DNA of 22,159 nt, from positions 1-22,159 of the IMG/VR virus record IMGVR_UViG_2671180847_000010. One strand, given 5' to 3'. Positions 1,009 through 8,042 of this stretch are shown here, piece after piece. The translations under genes and the position numbers were made by a program. The notes below the pieces were generated by a model that worked only from the letters and a program-made list of their open reading frames with translations, was not told where the DNA came from and made no database searches. The stretch's first letter is position 1, and every line of letters starts with the position of its first letter. The stretch is from a virus. Lineage: Duplodnaviria; Heunggongvirae; Uroviricota; Caudoviricetes.

Positions 1009-1083
1009 GTCCTCTTAGTTAAATGGATATAACGAGCCCCTCCTAAGGGCTAATTGCAGGTTCGATTCCTGCAGGGGACACCA
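1009..1083 (+). tRNA. argW: tRNA-Arg (anticodon CCU), prophage integration target
   Basis: 75-nt sequence gtcctcttagttaaatggatataacgagcccctcctaagggctaattgcaggttcgattcctgcaggggacacca read directly; cloverleaf-compatible, ends in CCA, anticodon loop CUCCUAA. Matches my recollection of E. coli argW. Confidence 0.93.
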
Positions 1084-1244
1084 TTTATCAGTTCGCTCCC
1101 ATCCGTACCAGTCCGCAAAATCCCCTGAATATCAAGCCTCCCGTAGATTCACAGTTCGTCATGGTTCGCGTCAGATCGTTGACAGCCGCACTCCATGACG
1201 GGTAAAAAGTGGATAAAATAATTTTACCCACCGGATTTTTACCC

Positions 1245-2402
1245 ATGCTCACCGTTAAGCAGATTGAAGCAGCAAAGCCGAAAGAAAAACCATACCGCCT
1301 TCTCGATGGTAATGGCCTGTACCTTTATGTCCCTGTGTCAGGGAAAAAGGTATGGCAGCTTCGCTACAAGATTGACGGTAAGGAGAAAATCCTGACCGTC
1401 GGAAAATATCCGCTTATGACTTTGCAGGAAGCAAGGGATAAGGCATGGACTGCGAGGAAAGACATCTCGGTTGGCATCGATCCGGTAAAGGCGAAAAAGG
1501 CTTCGTCTAACAACAATTCATTTAGTGCGATTTACAAGGAATGGTACGAGCACAAGAAGCAAGTCTGGTCAGTAGGCTATGCAACTGAACTTGCCAAAAT
1601 GTTTGATGACGACATTTTACCCATCATCGGCGGTCTTGAGATTCAGGATATTGAGCCGATGCAACTGCTGGAAGTAATCCGCAGATTTGAAGATCGCGGT
1701 GCAATGGAGCGAGCCAACAAAGCCCGCAGAAGATGCGGCGAGGTTTTCCGTTACGCTATTGTCACTGGTAGGGCTAAATATAACCCGGCACCTGACCTTG
1801 CTGACGCCATGAAGGGATACCGCAAGAAGAACTTCCCGTTTTTACCTGCCGACCAGATCCCGGCATTCAACAAAGCACTTGCAACATTTTCAGGAAGTAT
1901 CGTATCGCTCATTGCGACAAAAGTTTTACGTTATACAGCCCTAAGAACGAAAGAGCTTCGTTCCATGCTATGGAAGAACGTCGATTTTGAAAACAGGATT
2001 ATCACCATCGACGCCAGTGTGATGAAGGGACGCAAAATTCATGTGGTCCCGATGTCAGACCAGGTGGTTGAACTTCTCACTACGCTAAGCTCAATCACCA
2101 AACCAGTCTCAGAGTTTGTTTTTGCCGGGCGCAACGATAAGAAAAAGCCAATCTGCGAGAACGCGGTATTGCTTGTGATCAAACAAATCGGCTATGAGGG
2201 TCTGGAAAGCGGTCACGGATTCAGGCATGAATTCAGCACGATTATGAACGAGCACGAATGGCCTGCTGACGCTATTGAAGTGCAACTGGCACATGCCAAC
2301 GGCGGATCTGTGCGCGGGATTTACAACCATGCTCAGTATCTCGATAAGCGCAGAGAAATGATGCAGTGGTGGGCGGACTGGCTTGATGAAAAGGTGGCGT
2401 AA
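1245..2402 (+). CDS. intS: P4-family tyrosine integrase (IntS-like), transcribed away from argW
   Basis: Tyrosine-recombinase C-terminal region (..HGFRHEFST.., ..RGIYNH..) and an N-terminal region of the kind P4-family integrases carry; sits immediately 3' of a tRNA gene. Start placed at in-frame ATG 1245 (385 aa) rather than the track's GTG 1209; neither has a strong SD. Confidence 0.9.
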   Translation: MLTVKQIEAAKPKEKPYRLLDGNGLYLYVPVSGKKVWQLRYKIDGKEKILTVGKYPLMTLQEARDKAWTARKDISVGIDPVKAKKASSNNNSFSAIYKEWYEHKKQVWSVGYATELAKMFDDDILPIIGGLEIQDIEPMQLLEVIRRFEDRGAMERANKARRRCGEVFRYAIVTGRAKYNPAPDLADAMKGYRKKNFPFLPADQIPAFNKALATFSGSIVSLIATKVLRYTALRTKELRSMLWKNVDFENRIITIDASVMKGRKIHVVPMSDQVVELLTTLSSITKPVSEFVFAGRNDKKKPICENAVLLVIKQIGYEGLESGHGFRHEFSTIMNEHEWPADAIEVQLAHANGGSVRGIYNHAQYLDKRREMMQWWADWLDEKVA

Positions 2403-2575
2403 TGCCACCTCAATATCACACAGGACTATCATCCTTCCTCAAGTCGTTAATCGCGTGCGTAGCCAAACTCAATACATCAACATGTCGAAGCATGATATGC
2501 CATCCTATAAATGAACATAAGAATCATCTTGAAGCGTGAGTGGTAGCGCCTAATAGTTGTTAGAGAATGTAAACA

Positions 2576-2599
2576 CGGCATGCTCAAAGACACATGCCG
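2576..2599. terminator. Candidate bidirectional hairpin between convergent int and tailspike genes
   Basis: Inverted repeat CGGCATG-(10 nt)-CATGCCG, followed on + strand by a moderately U-rich tract (cctttgtaattatt). U-tract is weak on both strands. Confidence 0.3.
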
Positions 2600-2630
2600 C
2601 CTTTGTAATTATTAAAGCTCGTGTGCTTAC

Positions 2631-4538
2631 CTAAGCATTAAACCCTCCGACTCTTACTTTTAACGTGGTAAGCTTAGTATTTACTGTTATTTTTAAAGTT
2701 CCCGAGCCTGCAGCAACAGAGAATAAGCGGCGACCTCCAGATGTACCACCTCCAGCAGGAGGGGTGGTATCGAGTTCGCCTGTGATCGATATTGAAATGG
2801 TACCCTCACGGTTAGCAACGAGTAGCTCTAAACATTCAGCCCAGGTGTTTTGTGCAGAAGACCAAGCATCGATAAGGATTCTCTGTGTCGTTCTGTTTGG
2901 TATTGCGATGGATTTTACTTCACCTTCATTTACCAGACCTTGAAAACGAGTTCCATAATCTATCCAGCTAATGTTATAACCTGCATTTGTTGCAGGGTCT
3001 TGAGAGGTATACCAGGTCTGGGTTCGCACTCCAGTTTGACCGATTGTCAGTAGAGGACGAGCAAACTGATCGCGGTGAATGTATGCGTTAGCCCTTATTC
3101 CATTGCTTTGCAGATCTATATCTGCTGTTCGAGGGTTAGGAAAAGTAGCTTTTCCACCAACATCAAAAACATCATAATGATTTGCAACTGCAGGAATCCA
3201 TCCGTTCCTGTCCAGATTTCTAAAGAAATCCTCGAAAGCCAGCCAGTATGATTGCTGATGACCTAAAAGGTTAGGGTGAACAGTCTGTATTTCAGGGGTC
3301 CGGTCAAATAATGCCGTTTCACCATATTTAGCAACAGCATCAAACCAGTATTTTTCCACATCGATAAGCACGCAACCCATTTCTACAGCGATTTTCCTGA
3401 TCGCATCGTTTCCTCGAAGGAAGCGGACACCTGCTTGAATATTTACCCCATTCCACTCAAACGTGACATTTGAGTTTGCGGCAGATGGTATAATGTCATT
3501 ATCAGAGACTGGGGCCGGAGAAGATGAAGGCCATATTTGAGAAATTCCAGCCGGCATGCTCCAGCTATATTCAGAAATATTCGGATGAGGTGTGGTTGTT
3601 AGCACAACATCCCCGCCGGCCTCCCTGACTAAATTAATAGCATTTCGAAGGCGCTGTTTAAATCCGTTTTCATTGAATGTTTGCCCGGCATTATATTGTG
3701 CGGTAGGAAAATCATTCATTCCATATATAAACAAAGCAATATCAGGATATATTCCTTCAGTAACAACTTCAGGCCATTGGTTAACAATAAAATTATTTAT
3801 CGTTGAACCATTAACAGATTTGTTTGTGAAGTTAATGGGATAAATACGCTGCTTATTTAACGTATCGTTCATATACTCAAAAAATTTAGCAACTGGTGCC
3901 TGTGTTGCTGGATCAGGAAGCGTAGCACCAACCCCAACAGAAGAACCAAACCCATAGAGTCGAAATAAGTTCTGATAGCCAGAAACCCCATGCCGATAAG
4001 CTGTTAATTTATTGACGAAATTTGGGAAAAGGGCCTGTGATGATCCAGACGCAGCACGAATAGAAGCCTCTACCGTTCTTCCTGTTTCAGTCGCAACTAG
4101 GCTAGCACCTTCTTTTGAAGATAATCGGCAGTTAAAATCTGATATCTCATCAATTTCTGATTGTATTGCTGCCAGTAGCTCATCTACGTAGTGACGTAAC
4201 TGGTCAGGCTCGTATTTTAGAACATTAGGAAAATAGAACTGCTGAGCACCATATGCATCATAAACAGCCATAGAATGGCCTTGCACAGTAACGAACTTGG
4301 CAATCTGCCCGTTATATACCGGATATCCAGCAGCGTTAATGATGATTGGTTGCGAAACAGGAACATGAGAGCCGTCTTCGTTCTCTACATAAACCTGAAT
4401 CTGGTTTTCTGGACTTACCGGGTCAGTGTCAATTTTACCGATATAAATTTTTCCATTGGCTACGGCTTTAAAAGAACGAGCCATAGTGAAGAGTTGCGAA
4501 GGCATGCTTACCACAACATTGGCTGTAATGTCTGTCAT
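2631..4538 (-). CDS. Tailspike protein: P22-like head-binding N-terminal domain fused to a non-P22 receptor-binding region with SGNH-hydrolase-like motifs
   Basis: N-terminal ~115 aa ([11 protein letters not shown]...[18 protein letters not shown]...[11 protein letters not shown]) matches the conserved P22 gp9 head-binding domain as I recall it. Downstream region carries ordered motifs GFGSS (aa 196-200), NGST (243-246), GMND (273-276, nt 3711-3722) and VHP (420-422), resembling SGNH blocks I, II, III and V. Confidence 0.9.
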
Positions 4539-4670
4539 TTAATTTGCTCCAGATACAAGGAATCACCGAAGCATGGCTACGGTTGGTGTTTGTTGCATAC
4601 CGAAATGGTACGATTGTTGATTTGTACAGTAGGTTTTACGATGCCATTCCACCCATTTGGTGAGGCATTG
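4539..4670. promoter_or_regulatory. Divergent intergenic region between tailspike (-) and mnt-like (+) starts; presumed promoters/operators
   Basis: 132-bp non-coding spacer between two divergently oriented start codons; GGAG-type SD upstream of each start. Specific -10/-35 elements could not be assigned confidently by eye. Confidence 0.4.
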
Positions 4671-4928
4671 ATGATGTACAGCAAATACGATGAGGCGCAG
4701 TTCCACTTGAGGCTTACGCACGAGTTGCACGCTAAGATTAAGCAACGTGCAAAAATGAATAACAGGTCTATCAATTCCGAAATTGTGGCTACGATGGAAG
4801 AATCACTCTCCAAACCATCACCTGTAAGCGGGTATCGTGATGAAGAAGAGAGGCTGGCCTCATTAATCTCGGAACGAGTAAAAGAAGTTGTGGCTGATAT
4901 CCTTAGAAAAGAAAAAACCCGCAATTAA
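4671..4928 (+). CDS. mnt: Mnt-like ribbon-helix-helix repressor (immI-type)
   Basis: 85-aa product with an RHH N-terminus (FHLRLTHELHAKIKQRA..NNRSINSEIVATMEESL) and the segment SKPSPVSGYR, closely resembling P22 Mnt as recalled. SD GAGG 5 nt upstream of ATG 4671. The track's 217-aa ORF (4275..4928) is an upstream extension that overlaps the tailspike in antisense. Confidence 0.8.
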   Translation: MMYSKYDEAQFHLRLTHELHAKIKQRAKMNNRSINSEIVATMEESLSKPSPVSGYRDEEERLASLISERVKEVVADILRKEKTRN

Positions 4929-4936
4929 GCGGGTTT
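4915..4936 (-). terminator. Rho-independent terminator closing the minus-strand antirepressor operon; mnt stop codon lies in the loop
   Basis: Stem AAACCCGC / GCGGGTTT with 6-nt loop aattaa. On the minus strand the hairpin is followed by TTTTTTC TTTTC; on the plus strand the U-tract is poor. The mnt TAA (4926-4928) is in the loop. Confidence 0.75.
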
Positions 4937-4942
4937 AGTTGG

Positions 4943-5164
4943 TTAGTTATCAAAAAGTCCGTACGTTTCTTCTTCTTCAGGTGTAAGGGGAAGAATCTCT
5001 ACTCTATCTATAGATACCTTTTCAATGTACCCATGAGGTCTACTTAAAATTAAAGCTCTCTCATGCCACAGAACTCCAAGAATGTGATACCTTCCAGCAT
5101 CTCCTTTTACCCTGGCTCTTCCTTTGATTCTTGGCGGCATAATGCCATATCTTTTCTTTGCCAT
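4943..5164 (-). CDS. Hypothetical 73-aa protein, translationally coupled to the upstream antirepressor gene
   Basis: Start ATG overlaps the stop of the upstream gene (TAATG arrangement at 5162-5166); ORF ends just before the operon terminator. No recognisable domain. Confidence 0.5.
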   Translation of the reverse strand: MAKKRYGIMPPRIKGRARVKGDAGRYHILGVLWHERALILSRPHGYIEKVSIDRVEILPLTPEEEETYGLFDN

Positions 5165-5889
5165 TATGCAACATTGCTCCCATGAATCAGGTGTTGTAGT
5201 GCTTTAACACCCTCCGCATTGTAGCGGAATGCTTCCACCTGTTTGCTTGAATGCGCAGATTTATCCAAGAAGAACTTCCCGTACTGCTCAGTTTTGAGGT
5301 TGTTTGCGTTAGCAATGCGACCAATCTTGTTTGCCGTTACTCCAAGCTGCTCTGCAACCTCCCCTGCTGAGTAGTAATGCTCTTCTATTGCTGGAAGAGG
5401 TATTGCATTAAAACCAACTATCGGGTTGATTATGCTTGCTGCCGCAGTCTGCTTTGCTTCCGGCGCAAGATTTGGCATCAAATCTAACAGATTGGTAACA
5501 GCTTCAACCGTCATTTTCAATGTTCGAGCCTGGCGATACTCAACAAGTCCACTCGACGATTTACCGCTTTTAATGTGCGCTTCTTGCATACTTTCAAGTT
5601 TGTCTACAAGTGTTCGGCGAACTGCTTTAGATTCGCGAGCAGCAACACGAAGCGCCTGCTTGATAGTCATGGAGATAACATCAATGTCAGCCCCGTTTTT
5701 CCGACCTACACTTTTTGTGTAGGTCTCGCCCTCCAATTCATCCTCAATTTTCTCGATGAATTTGTTGTTACGTACTGATGGCTCTCCACATAACTTGCGA
5801 GCTTCATTAACCATCATCAGAAGACTTTGGCTGTCAATGGTTTTATCCGTGACAACGGATCCGATGTTTGCTACATTCTTCAAAGTCAT
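5164..5889 (-). CDS. Putative phage antirepressor (Ant/KilAC-like C-terminal region)
   Basis: 241 aa from ATG 5889 with SD AAGGAA upstream (track ORF begins further upstream at 5940). C-terminal segment YSAGEVAEQLGVTANKIGRIANANNLK... resembles KilAC/ANT antirepressor domains; domain call is from memory and needs a profile search. Confidence 0.7.
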   Translation of the reverse strand: MTLKNVANIGSVVTDKTIDSQSLLMMVNEARKLCGEPSVRNNKFIEKIEDELEGETYTKSVGRKNGADIDVISMTIKQALRVAARESKAVRRTLVDKLESMQEAHIKSGKSSSGLVEYRQARTLKMTVEAVTNLLDLMPNLAPEAKQTAAASIINPIVGFNAIPLPAIEEHYYSAGEVAEQLGVTANKIGRIANANNLKTEQYGKFFLDKSAHSSKQVEAFRYNAEGVKALQHLIHGSNVA

Positions 5890-5977
5890 TAGGCATTCCT
5901 TATGTGGTAGTAAGGGTGTGACATAGGCCGCCAGCAGCACACTGGCGGTTTTCTTTTTGCGCCGTCCGGCGCACCAA

Positions 5978-6604
5978 TCAATGAATCCATTCCTCGCCGC
6001 GCAGTTTTGTCAGCATTGGCTGAGCGTTCTTTACGACAAAATTGTTGGTATCAAGATTCTTCATTTCACGAAGAAGTGATTTCTTGGTTTCTTCTGACAT
6101 ATAGCGAGTCTCATATGCAATATCGTAAATTCTTCCTGAAAGCTCAGAACCAATTTGCTTCATTCCTGGGTAGATGTGTTTGCACATTTGTTGACTCTTC
6201 TCCATCCACAATTGTAAGTAGCAGAGATTAACCAGTTCTTCGTCAGTAAACTGTTTTGCAATCGGTGAGCATTCTGCCTGCCGATCCAAAATATCCAGCA
6301 CCCAGCGGCGGAACTCTTTGGCTACCGGAGTGCGAGCAAACATCGCGATTAGGTGGGCACCGCGTAGTGAGAAAACTCGCACTTTTTTGCGATAATTTCC
6401 TGAGGTACTCACTTCGAGTACCTGAGTCATTCCGGCGCTAAACTCATCGCTATACTTGTTATAAATCATTGTTACTGCACGGCTATTTGCATATTTAAGT
6501 GCAGATGCAATATTAGATGATGTAAACCAAACACCATGCATATCACGGGTGGGCACCAACTCAACTCCGTGGAAGTTGTAATCTGATTTTGCTACAATAT
6601 TCAT
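5978..6604 (-). CDS. Bro-N domain protein (antirepressor-like)
   Basis: Bro-N signature (..GVWFTSSNIASALKY..KKVRVFSLRGAHLIAMFARTPVAKEFRRWVLDIL..). Start placed at ATG 6604 preceded by SD AAGGAA; the track ORF starts at an upstream TTG (6709). Confidence 0.8.
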   Translation of the reverse strand: MNIVAKSDYNFHGVELVPTRDMHGVWFTSSNIASALKYANSRAVTMIYNKYSDEFSAGMTQVLEVSTSGNYRKKVRVFSLRGAHLIAMFARTPVAKEFRRWVLDILDRQAECSPIAKQFTDEELVNLCYLQLWMEKSQQMCKHIYPGMKQIGSELSGRIYDIAYETRYMSEETKKSLLREMKNLDTNNFVVKNAQPMLTKLRGEEWIH

Positions 6605-6677
6605 GTTAGTTTCCTTGCATACGGTTACTGACATAGAGGCCCGGTTTGTGTTCGCGCACTGCCGGGCTTCACTATTT

Positions 6678-6851
6678 TTATTGGATGACAACATCGCCCT
6701 TTGCCTCAAGTTTCATCAATAACTCCATTCGATAAGCTATCTCTGCCTGAATTGACCTATGGCATCTTTTTGCTGATTCGCGGATATGTGAATCAACCTT
6801 TTCTGTAAAACGAACCTGACGCGGCTTGATGGAAGATATCTTTTCAGTCAT
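6678..6851 (-). CDS. Arc-like ribbon-helix-helix protein (57 aa), first gene of the antirepressor operon; absent from the ORF track
   Basis: Hand translation of the minus strand: MTEKISSIKPRQVRFTEKVDSHIRESAKRCHRSIQAEIAYRMELLMKLEAKGDVVIQ. SD AGGAG 6 nt upstream of the ATG. RHH pattern (beta strand QVRFTEKV, then two helices) and RSIQAEIAYRME resemble P22 Arc RSVNSEIYQRVME as recalled. Below the track's apparent 60-aa cutoff. Confidence 0.6.
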   Translation of the reverse strand: MTEKISSIKPRQVRFTEKVDSHIRESAKRCHRSIQAEIAYRMELLMKLEAKGDVVIQ

Positions 6852-6950
6852 TATGCACTCCTGTTTTTGAAAAACTCATAATCTCACTTTTTGTAGTTTG
6901 ATTATTCACTCACACTCAGTATGAGTCAATGAATTTTTTATGGTGAACTA
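6852..6950. promoter_or_regulatory. Divergent control region between the antirepressor operon (-) and the CI-like repressor gene (+), with palindromic operator candidates
   Basis: 99-bp spacer between divergent start codons. Contains a 13-bp palindrome GTTTTTGAAAAAC (6863-6875) and an inverted repeat ACTCA-gta-TGAGT (6914-6926). Confidence 0.5.
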
Positions 6951-7592
6951 ATGAATTTTGACGATCAATTCCCATCAAGAGTATCTCTGGCAAGACAGTC
7001 CAGGGGTATGACGCAGGCGCAGTTGTCAAAATTAGCTGGTGTTGTTCAACGTCAAATAGCTGCATACGAGGGTGGTGAGGCTAAACCACGGCTTCGTGTA
7101 TTGCAGGCATTAGCCAACGCATTAGGCACTACGGCTGAGTGGTTAGCTCTGGGTGAAGGTCAGGGGCCTGGAACAAAAAACGTCATGCCTGACGTTCTGG
7201 TAAAGCAAATACCAATCCTCAAACTAGATGAAGTTATGCATTACCTAAACACAGGTGAACATTCATCGTCTAGATTTCATCCGGCAATATACAATGTTGG
7301 TGACTCTGCATTTGCATTGACTATTGAAGGTGAAGCTATGACTACAAGTTCAGGTATTAGCTTTCCCAGAGGATCAGTTGTCACGTTCAGCCCTCTAGTA
7401 AAAGCTAAAAGCAAAGATTATGTAATAGCATCATTGGATAAAGAGCAAATATTGAGCTTCAAGCAGGTTTACATTGGTGAAATAGAGACAAACTTAGTAT
7501 CCCTAAACCCAATGTATCCTAATATTCTTGTTAGAAATGAAGATGTTAGTATTTTGGCAACCGCAGTTTACCTTGAAATCCCGTTGCTTTGA
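6951..7592 (+). CDS. CI/LexA-like repressor: XRE-type HTH plus peptidase S24-like domain with Ala at the nucleophile position (predicted non-cleavable)
   Basis: N-terminal HTH (MTQAQLSKLAGVVQRQIAAYE). C-terminal region aligns by eye to lambda CI: DSAFALTIEGEAM vs CI DSAFWLEVEGNSM, SFKQV vs TFKKL, LNPMYP vs LNPQYP. Nucleophile position is Ala129 (codon gct at 7335-7337); Lys171 is retained; no Ala-Gly in the linker. Confidence 0.9.
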   Translation: MNFDDQFPSRVSLARQSRGMTQAQLSKLAGVVQRQIAAYEGGEAKPRLRVLQALANALGTTAEWLALGEGQGPGTKNVMPDVLVKQIPILKLDEVMHYLNTGEHSSSRFHPAIYNVGDSAFALTIEGEAMTTSSGISFPRGSVVTFSPLVKAKSKDYVIASLDKEQILSFKQVYIGEIETNLVSLNPMYPNILVRNEDVSILATAVYLEIPLL

Positions 7593-7652
7593 TATCCTTT
7601 AGGAAGCGACACATTATCATCCGGTGTTCTGCTCAAAACTAAGGAGGTTGGT

Positions 7653-8042
7653 GTGAAGCTATTTCTTGCTGCTATGTTCTTATTCATATCTTTTGGGGCT
7701 ACAGCAGAGTGCTGGGTCGTTGGAGATATGCGCGGAATAAGCTATTCAGAACGAAATAATTTCCATCCGGAAGAAGATGGTTTTAGTGGAACATTCATCA
7801 TTAAGACAAGCGGTGAAGATGCTAGCATCACATATTCTGGGACAGATGCGGGCGGCATGGCTTACAAAGTATTGTCTAAAAACTCCATCATAGGAATCGG
7901 CGCGAATGGCGAAACTCAACGCGTTATCGACTCATGGGTAATACATCCTACTGGAACAGTTTTAATGTCAAAAACCATTTCCGGTTATGGAAATATGGAT
8001 TCAACCAAAGCTTTTGTTGGAAAAGTAAAAAGAAAATGTTAA
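7653..8042 (+). CDS. Hypothetical exported protein (signal peptide), probably co-transcribed with the CI-like repressor
   Basis: GTG start 5 nt after a strong SD AAGGAGG. N-terminus MKLFLAAMFLFISFGATA-E looks like a Sec signal peptide with an A-x-A cleavage site; two Cys in the mature part. No terminator between it and the repressor gene. No recognisable domain. Confidence 0.7.
   Translation: MKLFLAAMFLFISFGATAECWVVGDMRGISYSERNNFHPEEDGFSGTFIIKTSGEDASITYSGTDAGGMAYKVLSKNSIIGIGANGETQRVIDSWVIHPTGTVLMSKTISGYGNMDSTKAFVGKVKRKC

Follow-up and report, generated by a model that had tools for sequence, protein, structure and literature searches.

The small open reading frame that closes the antirepressor operon of a P22-like prophage, here called ORF73, is a real gene under purifying selection. 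The interpretation that we favour, and consider reasonably probable, is that this gene is optional, stand-alone cargo and probably no obligatory subunit of an antirepressor. Independent action appears the most likely mode because not a single neighbouring gene is conserved family-wide and because some close relatives keep the antirepressor gene and lack precisely ORF73. The gene was found in a stretch of 22,159 nucleotides (IMG/VR virus record IMGVR_UViG_2671180847_000010, the whole of which we refer to as the window) that represents a P22-like (Lederbergvirus-type) prophage adjoining tRNA-Arg(CCT). A preliminary description of this DNA had placed a 73-aa ORF there without giving its strand; the ORF is confirmed, reads on the minus strand and has the translation MAKKRYGIMPPRIKGRARVKGDAGRYHILGVLWHERALILSRPHGYIEKVSIDRVEILPLTPEEEETYGLFDN.

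ORF73 closes a P22-type immI (arc-ant) operon as its last cistron (Table 1). In P22 the immI operon is transcribed from P_ant, a promoter shut off by Arc, and receives in addition read-through from P_late (PMC12111858). The window has a promoter-like site that holds the position of P22 P_ant, and on the strand of ORF73 no promoter-like site was found directly upstream of the gene. The true start of Ant-like gene 1 is likely the ATG at 5889, as in the annotation of phage JEP4, and that of Ant-like gene 2 likely lies at ca. 6616. Ejection-protein and head genes follow beyond the LexA/S24-like gene.

Table 1. Features of the window around ORF73, in window coordinates.
Feature	Position	Strand	Remarks
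Integrase	1209..2402	+	
Tailspike	2631..4538	-	
Mnt-like Arc-family repressor gene	4671..4928	+	Convergent with ORF73
Intrinsic terminator of the operon	4905..4936	-	8-bp stem, 5 GC pairs, then T-run
ORF73	4943..5164	-	Last cistron; PHROG 4977; predicted SH3-like barrel, basic N-arm, acidic C-terminal helix
TAATG stop/start overlap, Ant-like gene 1/ORF73	5162..5166	-	Anatomy of translational coupling
GGGAG, Shine-Dalgarno-like	5177..5181	-	12 nt 5' of the ORF73 ATG, within the end of the Ant-like gene
Ant-like gene 1	5164..5940	-	PHROG 1726 'anti-repressor'; without Pfam domain
Ant-like gene 2	5978..6709	-	Bro-N and P22_AR_C domains
Arc-like ribbon-helix-helix gene	6678..6851	-	First cistron of the operon
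Sigma-70 promoter-like site	6901..6929	-	TTGACT-17-AATAAT, 10/12, consensus match only
LexA/S24-like HTH gene	6951..7592	+	Divergent from the arc-ant operon

Several features of this region are worth recording in their own right. The immI region seems to hold two repressor genes, the Mnt-like one and the LexA/S24-like one, whose product is annotated as 'repressor protein C2' in JEP4 and as 'LexA family protein' in strain A41. Two different antirepressor-like genes stand in tandem in one operon (window 5164-6709, minus strand); P22 has a single ant gene. At the other end, an IntS-like integrase gene comes after tRNA-Arg(CCT) and is located directly beside the tailspike gene (window 1009-4538), a layout that is identical in E. 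coli AHB3 and that puts the attachment site on the opposite side of int with respect to the P22 map. Opposite the start of Ant-like gene 1 there is also a candidate sar-like antisense RNA (window 5849-5958, plus strand), with a promoter-like GTGACA-17-TACATT with TG at 5849..5877 and a plus-strand terminator at 5925..5951 (10-bp stem and T-run). The putative transcript, ca. 75 nt long, would span the ATG at 5889 together with an AAGGAA ribosome-binding site, and its predicted fold consists of two hairpins (-25.1 kcal/mol, z = -1.86); an Rfam scan of positions 4400..7700 gave nothing above threshold.

The junction between the antirepressor gene and ORF73 is constant. The ATG of ORF73 (5164..5162) and the TAA of the upstream 258-codon Ant-like ORF (5166..5164) have one base in common, giving the TAATG already pointed out in the preliminary description. 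We read the same overlap in 41/41 viral loci, all of them with the junction GGGAG[T/C]AATGTTGCATAATGGCA, in which only the T/C position between GGGAG and TAATG varies. The GGGAG would act as a Shine-Dalgarno sequence, at a spacing larger than the optimal one. On the other side of the gene, the hairpin AAACCCGC-TTAATT-GCGGGTTT, followed by TTTCTTTTCT (4936..4915, minus strand), begins 7 nt past the ORF73 stop, and the same palindrome also terminates the convergent mnt-like gene. In all 41 viral loci a terminator is found within ca. 10 nt of the ORF73 stop, belonging to one of two types according to the context, and the operon terminator is also present in relatives devoid of ORF73.

To assess selection we compared 45 copies of the gene (41 IMG/VR loci, phage JEP4, E. 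coli A41, the frameshifted copy of E. coli MB06231 and the window itself), which represent 19 DNA alleles, 18 of them intact and coming from 44 loci. The intact alleles segregate at 16 synonymous and 6 non-synonymous sites (out of 48 and 171 available sites, respectively), i.e., a pN/pS of ca. 0.105 in the annotated frame, and when the same 22 variable sites are read in the five other frames they are mostly non-synonymous. The protein changes are all conservative (R5K, P10S, R18M, A37S, V50I, and V55I). Among 5426 complete E. coli genomes the gene is present in 54 and is annotated as intact in 52 of these; a 1-nt deletion was found in two of the 54 copies, those of strains A10 and MB06231. The idea of a genuine last cistron, put forward in the preliminary description, is thus borne out by purifying selection, by the TAATG/GGGAG junction kept in every viral locus and by the terminator that always lies close 3' of the gene.

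Some apparent variants and contrasts disappeared on inspection. The N-terminal variants P0003, P0004, and P0006 were first taken as compensated frameshifts, but the scrambled N-termini of P0003 and P0006 are sequencing or assembly artefacts, since every neighbouring gene is fragmented in their assemblies. These public assemblies (L083 and L084) contain many indel errors that generate false protein 'variants' of ORF73, and conservation analyses based on protein clusters alone can be misled by indel-rich assemblies of this kind. Along similar lines, ORF73 (95-100% DNA identity) seemed better conserved than the Ant gene (85-100%), but an unusual conservation was ruled out, as the low Ant values come from one divergent patch (window ca. 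5650-5860, minus strand) and the remainder is 91-100% identical. Prophages with 91-100% identity elsewhere share only 55-70% in this hypervariable patch. By it the N-terminal part of the Ant-like protein falls into two allele classes, and the patch may determine specificity. There is also a 67-aa variant in Salmonella enterica serovar Kentucky (P0002), so that the window-type gene is present in Salmonella too. It has an in-frame deletion of six residues (KVSIDR) that takes away part of the last two predicted strands, and this copy may be non-functional.

No domain had been recognised in ORF73 before, and this holds for Pfam (only DUF6552 at 12.2 bits, below the cut-off of 27), NCBIfam and PADLOC. 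It does not hold for PHROGs, where the phrog_4977 HMM matches the protein end to end (residues 1-73 against profile positions 1-73 of 73, E 1e-53, 180 bits); the annotation of PHROG 4977 is unknown function. A word-indexed search of 5.8 billion proteins retrieved only near-identical copies, and a single one of 50,697 phage records, JEP4, carries the gene. True homologues (35-47% identity) emerged when 1.84 billion cluster representatives were scanned exhaustively with HMMER, and profile searches gave 79 and 59 homologue clusters, every one of them 'hypothetical' and none with a Pfam domain. The exhaustive searches add in this way ca. 100 clusters of small proteins, 30-45% identical to ORF73, from Pseudomonas, Stutzerimonas, Serratia, Klebsiella, Citrobacter, Salmonella, and Paraburkholderia. 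For each of ten distant members tested phrog_4977 was the sole match, at E-values of 1e-5 to 1e-13, far weaker than that of ORF73, which suggests that the profile of PHROG 4977 derives from sequences close to the window protein. The extended family is rare: a sub-alignment search found the Pseudomonas-type homologue at 7 loci among 185,579 species genomes, and the P. aeruginosa homologue used as query retrieved nothing in viral contigs. Scanning the longer homologues for fused domains gave none above threshold, and no paper on the family was found by accession numbers or by PHROG identifier.

The members share a recognizable architecture. From the annotated methionine they begin with the motif M-x-[RK]-K-x-YG-x-MPP-x-P, continue with a segment (K/R)GDAG-x-Y-x-V-W-G-x-D-W, in which W33 is invariant, and include a further segment V-L-x-D-R-A-G-x-E-W-x-P-I-x-x-V. 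The basic N-terminus and acidic C-terminus described earlier for the window protein turned out to be a trait common to the family. Among 60 homologues the N-terminal arm has a mean charge of +4.1 and is positive in 98%, and the C-terminal tail has a mean of -3.1 and is negative in 93%.

With an alignment of the 60 sequences, AlphaFold2 gave a model (pLDDT 87.5, pTM 0.69) with strands at residues 16-19, 26-32, 37-41, 47-51, and 55-58 and a helix at 62-72; the single-sequence run produced the same five strands and a shorter C-terminal helix (62-68) at a pLDDT of 73. The predicted fold class is an SH3-like five-stranded barrel, with a topology like that of small beta-barrels such as Tudor, KOW, the integrase C-terminal domain and Sso7d-like proteins, but no solved structure is similar to it in sequence, and a profile search of PDB sequences retrieved nothing. 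Foldseek searches with both models (twice against PDB, once against BFVD) returned generic small barrels only, including Tudor, KOW, SH3, and retroviral integrase C-terminal domains and ribosomal proteins. At best, E was 0.06 in PDB and 0.004 in BFVD, the latter to an uncharacterised protein, and no match in either database had E < 0.001. Since the Tudor, KOW, SH3, and integrase matches have query-normalised TM-scores of 0.5-0.6 at E 0.06 or worse, the modelled resemblance is one of fold class, and says nothing specific on homology or function.

The distant homologues live in very diverse genomic contexts. In podovirus prophages of Klebsiella, Serratia, and Stenotrophomonas the homologue comes after genes for internal-virion proteins and a small membrane-protein gene, and lies upstream of the lysis cassette or the terminase, and of the tailspike. 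A Pseudomonas megaplasmid and ICE-like contigs carry it beside SprT-like, DNA methyltransferase, and helicase genes, another locus has it near DUF4326, AbiEii and a polyvalent ART protein, and on Salmonella plasmid-like contigs it is found near TIR/SLATT genes, RelB/YafQ, Hha, and ProQ. When all neighbours were compared against each other across these contexts, the ORF73 family member was the only conserved gene. Most neighbours of the Pseudomonas, Klebsiella, and Serratia homologues are without a family in Pfam or PHROGs, and where matches did occur they pointed to phrog_684 (a virion structural protein), to a phosphohydrolase or to families without a known function. Separately, some Klebsiella and Stenotrophomonas podoviruses (L011, positions 5258-6659, minus strand, and also L060, L061, L065, and L075) have after the homologue a gene pair in the opposite orientation, of 416-423 aa (phrog_5990, unknown function, no PADLOC match) and 41-46 aa. 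This pair looks like another cargo insertion, because it is absent from sister phages.

Locally, the association with the antirepressor gene is strict. With one exception, every intact window-type copy lies directly at the 3' side of Ant-like gene 1 with the 1-nt overlap, an adjacency seen in 40 of the 41 viral loci, in phage JEP4, in strain A41 and in the 54 E. coli genomes. The exception is an IMG/VR prophage (L039) in which an IS3-family element (4561-5744, with ORFs of 112 and 272 aa) splits Ant-like gene 1 and leaves ORF73 intact. The pair is also found in an E. coli A41 prophage with baseplate genes, where the similarity covers window positions 4927 to 5956 and both the upstream antirepressor and the terminator are different from those of the window. 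Such a joint move into a phage of another type fits a functional pair. The association is nevertheless not reciprocal. The Ant gene is present in 91 of the 5426 E. coli genomes, ca. 37 of which (ca. 40%) do not have ORF73. At the two loci that were examined, those of Klebsiella phage phiKp_30 and E. coli OZ040950, ORF73 is missing as a clean 223-nt gap, with ca. 14 nt standing in place of window 4941..5163, and the mnt-like gene, the terminator and the Ant gene are retained, the latter with its C-terminus (HGSNVA*) unchanged. This replacement of window 4941..5163 by ca. 14 nt, recorded in L002 and L003, lies between flanks that are 86-97% identical.

The preliminary description had suggested that ORF73 could be a partner or modulator of the antirepressor, and had named a lack of ORF73 conservation in close relatives that keep the Ant gene as counter-evidence, which is in part what we found. 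Taken to its full extent, the suggestion would make ORF73 a protein devoted to Ant-like protein 1, be it as chaperone, modulator or anti-antirepressor, with the translational coupling providing a fixed ORF73:Ant ratio. The constant adjacency with its conserved overlap, and the travel of the pair to another phage backbone with other flanking elements, speak in favour of it. However, beyond this local linkage the proposal was not borne out. Part of the close relatives with the Ant gene, among them phiKp_30 and those ca. 37 E. coli genomes, do without ORF73, and the Ant C-terminus remains the same where the gene is missing. The same ORF73 is paired with both N-terminal allele classes of Ant, and the homologues with 30-45% identity reside in antirepressor-free surroundings with no conserved neighbour, save for one Serratia locus with an ORF6N gene two genes downstream. 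The antirepressor gene and the ORF73 family, in short, do not co-occur wherever either is found. The constant adjacency itself would reflect few independent events, because the window-type subfamily is at least 95% identical in DNA. We therefore regard a dedicated Ant partner as unlikely, the strictness of the local linkage being the reason why it retains some weight; a lineage-specific interaction with this Ant protein may exist, and ORF73 is probably no obligatory antirepressor subunit.

Two other explanations concern the nature of ORF73 itself. One is that there is no gene at all, just a chance ORF in a spacer or regulatory stretch between the Ant gene and the terminator, as might be thought from the lack of a Pfam or NCBIfam domain, the absence from some close relatives and the 1-nt deletion in two of the 54 E. 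coli copies. This is effectively refuted and is left with hardly any probability, given that the pN/pS of ca. 0.1 is specific to the annotated frame, that homologues in other genera have a conserved N-terminal motif starting at the annotated ATG and that the alignment-based prediction yields a confident fold. The other sees ORF73 as a small protein that binds nucleic acids much as Sso7d or the retroviral integrase C-terminal domain do, and that would influence transcription, the stability of RNA or DNA transactions, in the element or in the host. The data are compatible with such a role: almost all family members have the basic N-arm, the acidic tail could be autoinhibitory or partner-binding, and the top fold matches include the SIV/HIV integrase C-terminal domain, the KOW domains of Spt5/NusG and ribosomal proteins. 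Yet these matches are weak (E 0.06 or worse in PDB) and point equally to the peptide-binding Tudor and SH3 domains, and no similarity to a solved structure exists at the sequence level, so that we consider this specific role quite improbable.

Among known systems, the nearest operon analogue is icd of phage P1, which like ORF73 is a 73-codon ORF in an antirepressor (immI) operon with an overlap of a few bases with the antirepressor gene. It is located upstream of ant1, whereas ORF73 is downstream of the Ant gene. The annotation of icd has it inhibit cell division and makes it necessary for ant to be expressed. P1 Icd was rejected as a homologue because BLASTP with ORF73 gave no alignment at E up to 100. 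The other obvious comparison is with morons. P22-like phages have a variable region of morons or cargo genes between the ejection-protein genes and the tailspike, and ORF73 sits within this region; the homologues of the Klebsiella, Serratia, and Stenotrophomonas podoviruses occupy an equivalent late-region slot. The gene-sized presence or absence between conserved flanks is also moron-like. A classic moron comes with its own promoter and terminator, but ORF73 lacks a separate promoter and depends on coupling to the Ant gene in its anatomy.

Returning to the interpretation of ORF73 as optional, stand-alone cargo, the following scenario can be proposed. ORF73 is the translationally coupled last cistron of the P22-type immI operon in this Lederbergvirus-like prophage by tRNA-Arg(CCT), and lies exactly between the Ant stop and the operon terminator, so that it would inherit the expression of the ant operon. 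By analogy with P22, it would be made in a burst from P_ant once the DNA has entered or repression is lifted, and also by late-promoter read-through. The product would be a 73-aa cytoplasmic protein, predicted to consist of an SH3-like barrel, a basic K-x-YG-x-MPP-x-P arm and an acidic C-terminal helix. The family as a whole, i.e., PHROG 4977 and its distant relatives, is a single-gene cargo module of unrelated mobile elements, carried among others by P22-like and other podovirus prophages, by Pseudomonas megaplasmid and ICE-like elements and by Salmonella plasmid-like contigs. As the gene stands alone on phages, plasmids, and ICE-like elements whose hosts belong mostly to gammaproteobacterial genera, we infer that ORF73 most likely acts alone on a target shared by these hosts, be it a protein or a nucleic acid; the same distribution argues against a phage-specific partner.

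A role in anti-defence or host takeover is compatible with the data as well; what supports anti-defence is solely that SprT-like and DNA methyltransferase genes, and defence islands, are loosely associated with the family. In the boldest version, members of the extended PHROG 4977 would form a new class of SH3-like effectors that target the host on their own, for example in anti-defence or host takeover, expressed here in the first burst from P_ant upon DNA entry and with the N-terminal arm and the acidic tail as determinants. We think this rather unlikely, if worth stating. The plainer view is that ORF73 is an ordinary accessory small protein of phages and mobile elements, whose family is now defined more widely. 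In practical terms, the frame 4943..5164 deserves annotation as a real gene, a wider, mostly gammaproteobacterial family with a defined motif and fold class can be built around PHROG 4977, and the label 'Ant partner' should not be propagated. If ORF73 is only an accessory gene, the value of all this is one of bookkeeping. If it were a true effector with a host target it would matter more, as a small and autonomous protein, conserved across phages, plasmids, and ICE-like elements, that could easily be tested.
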